From the NCBI RefSeq assembly GCF_003019035.1, contig NZ_CP027447.1: 64,000 nt of DNA; one strand, written 5' to 3'. Numbering within the stretch: position 1 is the first letter of the stretch; the number at the start of each line of letters is the position of its first letter. Source of the DNA: Escherichia coli (lineage in GTDB: Bacteria > Pseudomonadota > Gammaproteobacteria > Enterobacterales > Enterobacteriaceae). The position numbers are program-made. This document shows, in pieces, positions 43,801 through 46,800 of this stretch.

Positions 43801-46800
43801 AACCGCGTTTAATTCATCAATAACCGGGGTTAACAGAGTGCTGAAAGCAGAAAGTAAATACCCCCCGCTCGGTGTTATTTTCGGTTAATTCATCCAGTAC
43901 CGTTTTTAATTCAAGCGCCCTGATTAATGCATTCTCAGAATGAATAAGAACATCGAAAGGGATTTTATCCATGGTTTACATCCTCCGGTAATTTTCTTCT
44001 GTAACGCGCCTCTGCCACATATTCCGCATAGTCCGACGCAATATTGAGAATATCGCTACCCGTTCCTGAATGTTCGGCGGTTTCCAGTAAAAAACATGCA
44101 GCTTTTACCATGTCAGCAACACATAACAGCGCAATATCTGTATCTTCCGGTGCGCCATCAAATTCCTGTTTCAGGGCATTAAAACGATCATCACGCATAA
44201 CCCCCCCCATTTTCACAATCAGCAATCAGGATAGCCCTGGCCTCATTCAGTGCCATATCAGCGGTAAGCTGTGCGTAAGCCAGCGAATGCGGGATTATTG
44301 CCCCTGTATATTCCGGCTCTCTGGTAATGTGTTTTTCTGCGGTTGCTGCCGTGCATGAAATATCAATCAGCGCGTGCATCAGCGTTCTGATAGCTTCGGC
44401 GGCTGCGTCCGGACGTGGGTTATTGCACATGTCTCACCCCCTGACGAATACGGGCGGCGAATACCATCACGCAGCCAGCCGGGGATTGCTGGCGGGCTTC
44501 CTGTTCGCTGGTGGCCTCGATGTGAATTACGCGCGGTTGTGCCGTGCTCAGGGCGATAAAACGCCAGATAAAATTGTTCTCGCATTTCTGAATAAACAGC
44601 GTGTTTTCTTCGCGCCCTTTCCATGTTGCCGAGATATAGCCCATGTCATTGAGCATCTCGCAGGCATCAACCAGCGTATCGGCGGCTACGTGTACAGTGT
44701 TTTTACCGTCAGCTATGCAATCACGGTGCACCGCCAGGAAGGTGTATATAAATTTAGGGTGAGTTTGGGTATGCTGTGTTCCAGCCATAATCGTTACTCC
44801 TGTTAACGGTTTGGTTAGAAGCCCCGTTACTGCTCCAACAGTGCGGGGCTTCGTCGTTTCAATTGCTGAATTGCATGTATCAGCCCTTGTGGTATTCAGA
44901 TTACATTTTGGTGAATACCATTTCAAGTCTTTTTTGGTATTCACTTTTGTATTACACTGCATCCCGTTATTAATCGGAGGTGCAAACATGTCCACGAGTT
45001 CTGTTAACAATAAGTCACAGCAACTGAATGCCAGATTTCCACATGAAGTAGTGAGTGGCATTGAGGCATCCCTACAGCCAGGGGAAACTAAAGCGAATTT
45101 TATAGTTACGGCTGTGCGCGGTGAAATCGCCCGCCGCCAGGCAGAAGGAAGCGGAGAAAATCCCCTGGTTTCTTCGCTCGATGCGCTGGCGCAGGTGGAA
45201 AAAATCGGAGTCAAAGCTGCCGAGGAGATCGGGCAGCTCGTCACCGTCGCACGTGAAGAACTCCAGCGCCGCAAGGCCAAAGAATCAGAATAATAACTAT
45301 CATCGCCATGGTGTGAGGAACTCCGGCGCATTGCTTTACAGGTACACAGAATGACCAACAAAGAATCAACCAATACACCATCACCGGCACGGAAAATACG
45401 GCGCAGAAAGATAGAGCATGAATCAGAAAGATTCGCGCCATGTGCTTTTGCCCTTGAGCAATTCCTTAAAGAGTACAGGGAAACGCGCCCATTGCAGGTA
45501 TGGAAACGTAACGAACCAAAAGGTTGATGTATGACCAGGAAGCAGACAGATAACAAACCATTGCTACCAGAAAATAAATCAGCAGGATTCTTACCTGAAA
45601 AAATTCTGCATGAGATCAAACGTCGCCAGCGACGCAAGGACAAAGAGCAGGAATAGCCCCACCGGAATTTTTTTCCGGTTACGCTTTGCCCACCAGCCGT
45701 AAATGTGGCATTGTTGGTTATGCTCATGCGTTGGGGATAACGTGTAGCTTGTGTCAAGGGGCCACCGTAGCGGGTGGCCTTTGTTTTGCCTGTTATCCTG
45801 AAACTATGGTCATTTCGACCACGGTTGATATAATCCCCCCGCACAGATTCATTTTTTGCGCAGTAGGTTAATTGTTCGCAAGGGCGCTCCGGTAACGGGG
45901 CGCTTTTTGTTTTTACCCACCAGCACAATAAAAATCTTCATTTTCCATTTTTGTAAAATTTCATGCTTTCCGGACGACTGGTCATATGTCATTTTTTAGC
46001 AGAAGATTTTGCCTTGCTGGTGGGTAGCTTCCCGGTCAACACGATGTACCGTATAATCAACACCGCGTGTGGTTACTGAATACGCTCACCAAAGTAAAAC
46101 TCAGGCTGGTATTCACGTATCAGCCTTTTTTCTTCTTCCTCCAGCTCACGCTTTTTGCGCTTACATGCCTGTAGCTCCCTCCCCTTCTCACTGGCACTTA
46201 TCTGGTATTGCTCTTTGCGGCGGGAAAAATCCTGTAATGCGCCCCACGGGATACCATAAGCCCCCGTTTTTCTGATACCCGGTATCACATTTCTGAATAC
46301 CCAGTTACTGAAACGATGGGCGAACGTGCCAGGCGTCGTTGCTTTGCGGCTGCGGGCTATTAGTTTGTAGAAACCTGACTCAGAGATAATGCTCATATTC
46401 TGATTTCCTCCGGGGGTGTAAGTTAAATTTACTCCCTTTTCATCATCATCAAGCATCTGCAACGCCGTACGCGAATTGGTCAGCTCCAGCGCAGCGCAAA
46501 CATCCTTTGCAACAAACCACGGATCGCCGTTCAGATACACCACGCGAACGTTCACACCATCAAAGCGCAGAACGACCAGATCACGAATATCACAGAATTT
46601 TTTCACATGACGTGCGTCACCCTTGCCCGTCACGGCAATATTTTTATTCATCGCTTTCTACCTCACATACAAAAAACCCCGCATTGCGTGGTGCGGGGTT
46701 GTCGGTAATTACTTATTGGCGTTTTTGTATGGGCTGTTTACTTCCTTTACTCCTGGCGGATGCATAACCCACCAGAGCACATCAGAGAGCAACCAGGAAA

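Follow-up and report, generated by a model that had tools for sequence, protein, structure and literature searches.

What controls the replication operon of a Gram-negative phage-inducible chromosomal island (PICI) is the question raised by a compact divergent region of Escherichia coli, found in a stretch of 64,000 nucleotides of contig NZ_CP027447.1 (assembly GCF_003019035.1), hereafter the window. A leftward Icd-like gene (icd) heading the replication genes of an island lies there back to back with a rightward, ylcI-like gene for a ribbon-helix-helix (RHH) protein. The preliminary description of this DNA had a leftward operon starting at 44788 and an intergenic region of ~200 bp, and both hold: the Icd-like gene starts there on the minus strand, and 199 bp separate the two start codons. 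With moderate confidence we read the region as a protein-plus-RNA immunity or regulatory module, which would silence the internal replication promoter and be bypassed by AlpA-driven read-through. The two genes that frame it are:

44420..44788, minus strand: Icd-like gene, 122 aa plus stop (NCBIfam NF033153, 79.3 bits against a cutoff of 25)
44988-45293, plus strand: ylcI-like gene for a 101-aa RHH protein (NF041551, phrog_6522)

By its predicted structure, the 101-aa protein is an RHH dimer of the YlcI/YnfO family. The RHH-like N-terminus first noticed by eye matches NF041551 (YlcI_YnfO_N) over residues 9-50 with 60.3 bits against a cutoff of 30 (E=1.3e-16), and phrog_6522 is matched over the full length. 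The AlphaFold2 (AF2) monomer model contained helices only and its Foldseek search was uninformative, and a linked dimer of two N-terminal domains was used instead. This model, a structure prediction of the kind the preliminary description had proposed as a check, gives the beta-alpha-alpha RHH fold twice (strand 10-18, helices 19-28 and 35-54), with a predicted local distance difference test (pLDDT) score of 86-96 in the core, or ~90, and a predicted template modelling score (pTM) of 0.65. The top nine Foldseek matches of the linked dimer are F-relaxosome chains of ~105-120 residues (probability 1.0); the output carries no chain name, and we take them to be TraY, a tandem RHH protein. A long, conserved helix spans residues 51-101, and the beta-strand region differs between alleles. 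A helix-hairpin-helix in the C-terminal region, suggested by a weak match to Hef (E=0.02, solved-structure profiles), was rejected, as AF2 shows a single long helix.

The protein has 128 homologs in Enterobacterales, from at least 10 enterobacterial genera, and our literature searches found no description of YlcI/YnfO function. In some islands the same slot is filled by short-form RHH proteins of 59-61 aa, EcCICFT073 included, or by an Arc-like RHH protein of 57 aa. The O157:H7 island at roxA/pepT (NZ_CP038414.1; ~4838-5011 of the fetched locus L025, plus strand) has an unannotated gene of the latter kind (57 aa, phrog_228, E=1.5e-6); two ATGGTAATTACC operators accompany it, and the Prokaryotic Genome Annotation Pipeline (PGAP) calls the antisense frame an 'Icd-like' pseudogene.

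Upstream of the ylcI-like gene, toward icd, lie a row of repeats and two putative divergent promoters:

44890-98: putative operator half-site TGGTATTCA (inverted repeats I3/I6)
44912-20: putative operator half-site TGAATACCA (inverted repeats I3/I6)
44935-44: putative operator half-site TGGTATTCAC (inverted repeats I3/I6)
near 44958-65: degenerate fourth site
44898..44926, minus strand: putative leftward promoter of the icd operon, with -35 TTGAAA (complement of 44921-26), a 17-nt spacer and -10 TAATCT (complement of 44898-903)
44950-55, plus strand: -10 TATTAC of the putative rightward ylcI promoter, aligned with TGTGTATAAT/TATACT in other alleles
44976-80, plus strand: Shine-Dalgarno sequence (SD) GGAGG of the ylcI-like gene

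The three half-sites, spread over 44890-44944, are perfect inverted repeats of 9-10 nt in alternating orientation, ~22-24 bp apart, and in related loci the site positions are constant at about -99, -75, -54 and -29 from the RHH ATG. The leftward -35 (CTTGAC/TTGAAA) and -10 (TAATNT) likewise keep their position across operator alleles. What does change, over ~35 related loci, is the repeat word, and it switches with the beta-strand allele of the RHH protein: GAATACCA goes with KSQQLNARFP, GTAAGAC with KSQSLTARIP and GAAACACAC with KSQLTTVRVP, and ATGGTAATTACC is the operator word of the modules with an Arc-type RHH protein. Identical alleles have the same words across genera, and different alleles have different words despite near-identical flanks. 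An automated search for the most repeated 8-mer was noisy (T-runs), and the assignments of words to alleles come from a table and a reading of the sequences. As judged from these comparisons, the repeats carry the signature of a specific operator, and since they are allele-specific and cover both promoters, a repressor switch is the best reading of this part of the region. The earlier idea of a satellite master-repressor switch thus survives as to the switch, with an RHH gene divergent from the replication operon and allele-specific repeats, but not as to 'master', which is not established given that AlpA is required and that the gene lies opposite to int.

The best-supported regulatory element of the region was missed by the preliminary description. 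It is an antisense RNA, predicted from fold and covariation, which overlies the icd SD and ATG (44786-44788) and has its 3′ end just before the operators:

44770..44775, plus strand: hexamer TATGCT within icd codons 5-7, the -10 box of the promoter predicted for the antisense RNA
44782-44860, plus strand: predicted cis-antisense RNA, ~79 nt
44783-44816, plus strand: stem-loop SL1, with the anti-SD CUCCU in its loop (44797-44801)
44818-44852, plus strand: stem-loop SL2, a GC-rich terminator followed by a U-rich tail

All loci share a conserved segment here, between icd ATG and operators. In the window sequence the plus strand folds with a minimum free energy of -35.7 kcal/mol (z=-6.29) and the opposite strand with -27.4 kcal/mol (z=-3.73). 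The two-hairpin fold is present in 35 out of 35 distinct sequences, the plus strand being the more stable in every one by a mean of 11 kcal/mol, and in the SL1 stem the complement of the icd start codon is paired with a conserved UUGGU. A MAFFT alignment put SL1 structurally out of register for some clades, and an alignment based on a covariance model (CM) was used instead: over the 35 distinct sequences, compensatory changes occur in 18 of its 27 pairs, and 95% of its cells are paired. None of 500 shuffles reached any of five covariation measures, the MAFFT-based count was concordant, and sliding the 3′ partners left at most 42% of cells paired. G-U pairs make up about one in seven paired cells (~14%) and would turn into mismatches on the opposite strand. 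The hexamer stands ~7 nt upstream of the RNA start; its T1, A2 and T6 are invariant (22/22 aligned loci and 35/35 distinct sequences), unlike the bases between them and the Icd residues encoded there, and A2 falls on an icd wobble position.

Each module yields a single match to the covariance model, R1, always on the plus strand, and the window as a whole yields one. At 40000-50000 of the window no Rfam family, sar included, reaches E<=1, nor do the C4/CI clan models (RF01695, RF01394, RF03163) there or in the O157 locus; the same scan recovered C4, isrK and c4-a1b1 in P4 (E=1e-14 to 1e-9), and R1 searched against P4 gave no hit. The antisense RNA falls outside the C4/CI RNA clan. Chance Rfam hits in the window (mir-4716, sau-6072, RsaJ) were discarded as reflections of iterons and a terminator, the microRNA matches being spurious because of the iterons at 41835-42050. 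Literature searches returned neither a description of this antisense RNA nor its sequence, and no antisense RNA of any PICI.

The whole module lies antisense to one open reading frame (ORF):

44420..45928, minus strand: long ORF of 502 codons, in frame with icd

In the window, 383 codons are open upstream of the icd ATG in the phase of icd, the P4-like situation of a long upstream ORF in the frame of a nested gene. The preliminary description had dismissed this 502-aa ORF as a composite artefact, which the family contradicts. Of 39 loci, 28 keep the in-phase frame free of stops over 180 codons or more. Neither of the other frames runs beyond 39 codons, apart from L021, in which, owing to a frameshift, another frame stays open over 318 codons. 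From icd ATG to RHH ATG the distance equals 2 mod 3 in 22 of 30 distinct operator regions, at eleven different values, and every one of these 22 in-phase regions is stop-free in the icd frame; shuffled versions are stop-free in 5.5% of cases on average. Among the eight out-of-phase cases, five have the neighbouring frame open, which points to single-base shifts. At 12 loci a GGAGG-like sequence stands before the start of the long ORF, and this start and the stop of the bro/ant gene upstream overlap by 1-8 nt; independent gene callers annotate the long ORF with a 4-nt overlap to the upstream gene. The translation of the long ORF upstream of the Icd domain, rich in Cys, Ser and Arg, has a non-globular appearance and no family match. 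The long frame, or fragments of it, is labelled Icd-like by PGAP and other pipelines.

Open sequence is also seen in the other direction. Ahead of its ATG, the plus-strand frame of the RHH gene has 59 further codons without a stop, from a TTG at 44811 onwards (44811-44987), and the promoter/operator region is stop-free on both strands. Between bro and the long ORF sits a 113-bp unit (45914-46026) whose ends are a perfect 12-bp inverted repeat, TACCCACCAGCA/TGCTGGTGGGTA, with a Chi site (GCTGGTGG) in each arm (45917-45924 on the minus and 46016-46023 on the plus strand). A third Chi (45690-45697, minus strand), conserved in most aligned loci, marks another cassette junction, so that 335 bp contain three of these sites, compared with 29 in all 64 kb of the window.

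The Icd-like protein appears to be a homolog of P4 Kil: its N-terminus matches Kil (MATTLTPSHPEFVF...) by BLASTP with E=4e-5, a weak match over only 20 residues. Leftward of icd follow a run of overlapping ORFs, then a DUF4222 gene and a gene for an AAA_25/RepA-like helicase.

How such an arrangement might work is best approached through known systems. The immI region of phage P22 holds the RHH repressors Mnt and Arc, the divergent promoters Pmnt and Pant and the antisense RNA sar. The E. coli module resembles it in a putative RHH repressor with a C-terminal oligomerisation helix (here predicted), in an operator placed over back-to-back divergent promoters and in a cis-antisense RNA of ~70-80 nt whose sequence complements the ribosome-binding site of one gene of the repressed operon. 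It departs from P22 in its target, an icd/kil-like gene heading a replication operon in place of ant; in its protein, which is of the YlcI/YnfO family or, in some islands, Arc-like; in an RNA for which Rfam returns no sar match; and in the position of the whole module, antisense inside a long ORF. The immI region of P1 and P7 comprises the c4 RNA, icd and ant, c4 being a processed same-strand RNA that acts on a/b sites. Shared with it are an Icd-family first gene and, as we propose here, its translation being controlled by a small RNA so as to gate the genes downstream, which are replication genes here and the antirepressor there; the window has no C4 match.

P4 immunity relies on the promoters PLE and PLL, a CI RNA with seqA/seqC, nested kil/eta and the Rho-dependent timm, and translation of eta/kil from the upstream start prevents termination (Forti et al. 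1999, in the summary of PMC10111431). Because the icd product resembles Kil and its gene sits inside the 3′ end of a longer ORF read in the same frame, the arrangement parallels P4 eta/kil, as it does in having the long ORF begin beside alpA/vis-side genes (here with a start that overlaps the upstream stop in relatives) and an RNA aimed at the translation start of the nested gene. Unlike the trans-acting, same-strand CI RNA, the RNA here would be cis-antisense and joined by a protein repressor encoded on the opposite strand, and neither C4, isrK and c4-a1b1 in the window nor R1 in P4 gives a match. With the Stl(Rpr)-Str switch of the Staphylococcus aureus pathogenicity islands (SaPI) and other Gram-positive PICIs (PMC6092414), the region shares a putative repressor gene divergent from the excision/replication operon of the satellite; unlike Stl, the protein has an RHH fold in place of a helix-turn-helix, its gene is opposite to int, and an RNA layer and an AlpA activator are added. 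By analogy, the logic would combine that of P22 immI (RHH repressor and cis-antisense RNA) with that of P4 and P1 (RNA control of a nested icd/kil).

From the conserved repeats, RNA structure and open frame, and from the predicted fold, we infer DNA binding, transcription starts, an effect of the RNA, polarity and read-through, combined in the following scheme. The RHH protein, made from its own promoter, would dimerise through the RHH domain and probably form higher-order complexes through its C-terminal helix; bound to the three or four allele-specific half-sites, it would regulate itself and keep the icd/replication operon off. As a second layer, the ~79-nt cis-antisense RNA would run from the -10 box in the first icd codons to the terminator before the operators, and the anti-SD loop of SL1 would pair with the icd leader and block icd translation, which, by analogy with P4 and P1, may have polar effects on the downstream replication genes. 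Induction need not lift this block directly. Transcription driven by AlpA from upstream would enter the long ORF in the icd frame, whose start in most relatives overlaps the stop of the preceding bro/ant gene, so that ribosomes could cross the module from a start beyond the reach of the antisense RNA; the convergent transcription would also interfere with the repressor gene. This bypass fits the published genetics of EcCICFT073, since alpA is required for induction, AlpA overexpression alone induces without a helper, and AlpA activates the gene or genes downstream of it (PMC6092414). No repressor is known for Gram-negative PICIs according to the same study (PMC6092414), and our literature searches found none described. 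A more far-reaching version, in which the region is an overlooked form of Gram-negative PICI immunity made of an exchangeable RHH cassette and a new antisense-RNA family, which together shut off an internal promoter for replication and the nested start of icd/kil, lying antisense inside an 'Icd-like' ORF kept open purely for AlpA-driven override, is tentative and in our view rather doubtful.

Several further features bear on these readings, beginning with what follows the ylcI-like gene:

45351..45527, plus strand: orf58, conserved small basic protein (phrog_21027, E=3.5e-13)
45531..45656, plus strand: orf41, 12 of 41 residues K or R, probably no gene
45757-45782 (feature to 45792), plus strand: intrinsic terminator T1 of the ylcI-orf58 unit
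45807..45915, plus strand: candidate second small RNA of ~70 nt, with predicted start at ~45842 and end at T2
45807-34, plus strand: its candidate promoter TGGTCA-16-TGATATAAT (10/12 matches with TG in the promoter scan)
45880-45907, plus strand: terminator T2

The two tiny basic ORFs of the preliminary description both exist (58 aa and 41 aa), but they are not equivalent. The 36 protein clusters of orf58 come almost entirely from E. coli. Fourteen loci carry it intact and with the conserved core HESERFAPCAFALEQFLKEY, behind RHH genes of three types. Judged by sequence, it is a small gene, conserved and restricted to Escherichia, that shares its plus-strand unit with the RHH gene. Its third codon positions coincide with those of the antisense long frame and the synonymous sites are shared, so that substitution patterns cannot choose the strand. 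orf41 is present only in the window and in locus L001 and matches no Pfam, NCBIfam or phrog family. Its C-terminus EIKRRQRRKDKEQE matches that of short-form YlcI proteins such as that of EcCICFT073, for which reason we read it as a recombination scar, probably a relic of a short-form ylcI 3′ end. ORFs of 41-58 aa are frequent by chance in the window.

The two terminators reported earlier correspond to plus-strand intrinsic-terminator-like sites at 45757-45782 and 45880-45907; the scan found seven such sites in 1.6 kb against 2.0 expected. T1 is conserved with compensatory stem changes in L001, L002, L035, L036 and L038, and T2 shows compensatory changes in L035. The sequence between them suggests a second RNA of ~70 nt as a candidate: the extended -10 (TTGATATAAT) and the 3′ half are conserved in six loci, with a GCTATAAT variant in three more, and a conserved unstructured segment, GCGCAGUAGGUUAAUUGUUC, is antisense to the 5′ part of the long ORF.

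Judged by gene content, the surrounding element is a capsid-forming Gram-negative PICI inserted in a prophage terL:

32834-33559, minus strand: C-terminal part of the prophage terL, nuclease profile positions 64-283 (Pfam)
41835-42050: iterons, ~10 copies of TCCCCAC(TTT) in both orientations, directly downstream of the RepA-like helicase gene
47250-48509: integrase ORF (full-length identity of 98.8% to a tyrosine integrase annotated in a related island)
48479-49672, minus strand: N-terminal part of the prophage terL, ATPase and start of the nuclease domain (Pfam)

The phage satellite recognised in the preliminary description is borne out by its integrase, AlpA, replication, iteron and capsid/packaging genes or sites. 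The island carries an integrase, two AlpA genes, a BRO-N gene, the ylcI/icd module, replication genes, iterons and SSB, of which Phage_AlpA, the AAA_25 helicase and SSB were recovered by family searches; int, alpA, a primase/replicase and a downstream origin within 10-15 kb are the content of a Gram-negative PICI. After SSB follow capsid, protease, portal, HNH, terS and terL genes (Pfam matches, 34087-40080), the mark of a capsid-forming PICI. The iteron cluster is probably the replication origin. The split terL flanks the island (~33560-48520) with both halves co-oriented with the island genes on the minus strand, which is the helper-embedded configuration, that of insertion in and co-orientation with a prophage late gene (PMC10111431). 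The prophage terS is at 49672-50154, and the island has full terS/terL, portal, protease and capsid genes of its own. The PADLOC defence-system scan gave no match.

The island also encodes a ProQ/FinO-domain protein (PF04352, E=9e-25; 40594-41136, minus strand). ProQ/FinO proteins are a class of RNA chaperones that assist antisense RNAs. As a core partner of the antisense RNA it was rejected, the gene being absent from the related loci examined, and it is regarded as accessory.

The pair of a plus-strand ylcI and a minus-strand icd recurs in ~40 fetched loci from 10 genera, and module DNA is matched in 1013 to 1784 of 5426 complete E. coli genomes. It is present in EcCICFT073 and in the O157:H7 island at roxA/pepT. 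In CFT073 the predicted antisense RNA falls at ~1,380,772-1,380,852 of NC_004431.1, opposite in strand to the icd-like gene C_RS30125. The RHH gene, operators and antisense RNA are kept across 10 genera without orf58, and the slot downstream of the RHH gene varies between loci. Locus L017 (3990-5440; E. coli NZ_CP029692.1) has a YlcI-type and an Arc-type module in tandem, each with its own antisense-RNA copy, and a second nested start there opens a 358-codon frame through the first module; as two complete modules stand in tandem, modules appear to move as cassettes. The lambdoid phage mEp460_ev081 (LR597641.1; L041, 2530-2608) carries the antisense-RNA element (CM, 71.7 bits) with a truncated icd start, near a hok/mok-like gene, so the module or its remnants are not confined to satellites.

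Other readings of the region draw on the same observations. If the RHH gene and orf58 were a toxin-antitoxin or accessory (moron/defence) cassette, regulating its own promoter only and without control over the island, the order of an RHH gene followed by a small gene would be the common antitoxin-toxin layout, the variable downstream slot would resemble a cargo site, and it would suit the weak matches of 22 of 33 family members to the VapB-like PSK_trans_fac (E down to 0.0015, below the curated cutoff). However, neither orf58 nor orf41 matches a toxin or defence family in Pfam, NCBIfam or PADLOC, so that a type II pair is not recognised; orf58 is restricted to Escherichia while the rest of the module spans 10 genera without it; RHH types are swapped with orf58 retained; and the operators overlap the divergent icd promoter. 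We regard this explanation as unlikely. A role for the RHH protein as a master repressor like SaPI Stl, inactivated by a helper-phage or island antirepressor (Bro/Ant) as the primary event of induction, has in its favour the divergence of its gene from the replication operon, a conserved C-terminal domain that could be a sensor and the Bro-N/Ant 'antirepressor' genes just upstream in many loci. Yet the requirement for alpA and the helper-free induction by AlpA overexpression in EcCICFT073 (PMC6092414) speak against it, as do the short RHH forms without that domain in the same slot, EcCICFT073 among them, and we give it little credence.

The hairpins could instead act in the leader of the minus-strand icd mRNA, as an attenuator, stabiliser or protein-binding site, with no antisense RNA at all. 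The complementary strand does fold in the window, with the SD in a loop, and the antisense transcription start is known by prediction only. Such a leader leaves unaccounted for the greater stability of the plus strand in 35 of 35 sequences, the many conserved G-U pairs that become A-C mismatches on the minus strand, the U-rich tail that follows SL2 on the plus strand only and the invariant T-A-N3-T ~7 nt upstream of the RNA, which includes an icd wobble position; it is improbable in our judgement. Least convincing is the proposal that the long minus-strand ORF is the sole real gene, for a Bro-network or Eta-like protein with a C-terminal Icd domain, and the plus-strand ORFs its shadows. The conserved open frame, the starts overlapping upstream stops in relatives and the Icd-like annotations agree with it. 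The plus-strand protein, however, belongs to a curated family that also occurs outside this context, is predicted confidently as an RHH dimer and has allele-matched operators, and the long translation, Cys/Ser/Arg-rich, has no family upstream of the Icd domain. This proposal we hold to be very improbable, and it is not exclusive of the others, as both strands may be translated.

The protein-plus-RNA module is itself opposed by several points. Its promoters and transcription starts are predicted from sequence; a consensus promoter scan called neither divergent promoter nor that of the antisense RNA, which is without an evident -35 box. Covariation of operators with alleles may come in part from the physical linkage of adjacent DNA, and YlcI/YnfO proteins are also known from lambdoid prophages, in other contexts. 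The long frame is broken in 11 of 39 loci. In the window its first start is a TTG 144 nt past the bro stop and without SD, which is not an eta-like start, and with no convincing start and the 113-bp element in between, read-through translation may not operate in this island. Finally, since alpA deletion abolishes induction (PMC6092414), the module is not the sole or master switch.

Against the background of Fillol-Salom et al., the module is a concrete candidate for a repressor and an antisense RNA in Gram-negative PICIs, and its presence in both experimental model islands, EcCICFT073 and that of O157:H7 at roxA/pepT, makes the question testable in existing strains. DNA that matches the module is found in some 20 to 33% of complete E. 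coli genomes. The analysis also points to systematic misannotation: small RHH genes are missed, the antisense long ORFs are called 'Icd-like pseudogenes', and the RNA family is absent from Rfam. The region is also a rare case of a reading frame kept open through promoter and operator DNA. Should the more far-reaching version hold, the switch would be overprinted and use both strands, with both layers overridden by ribosomes initiated upstream, and it would bring P4-type and P22-type immunity together.

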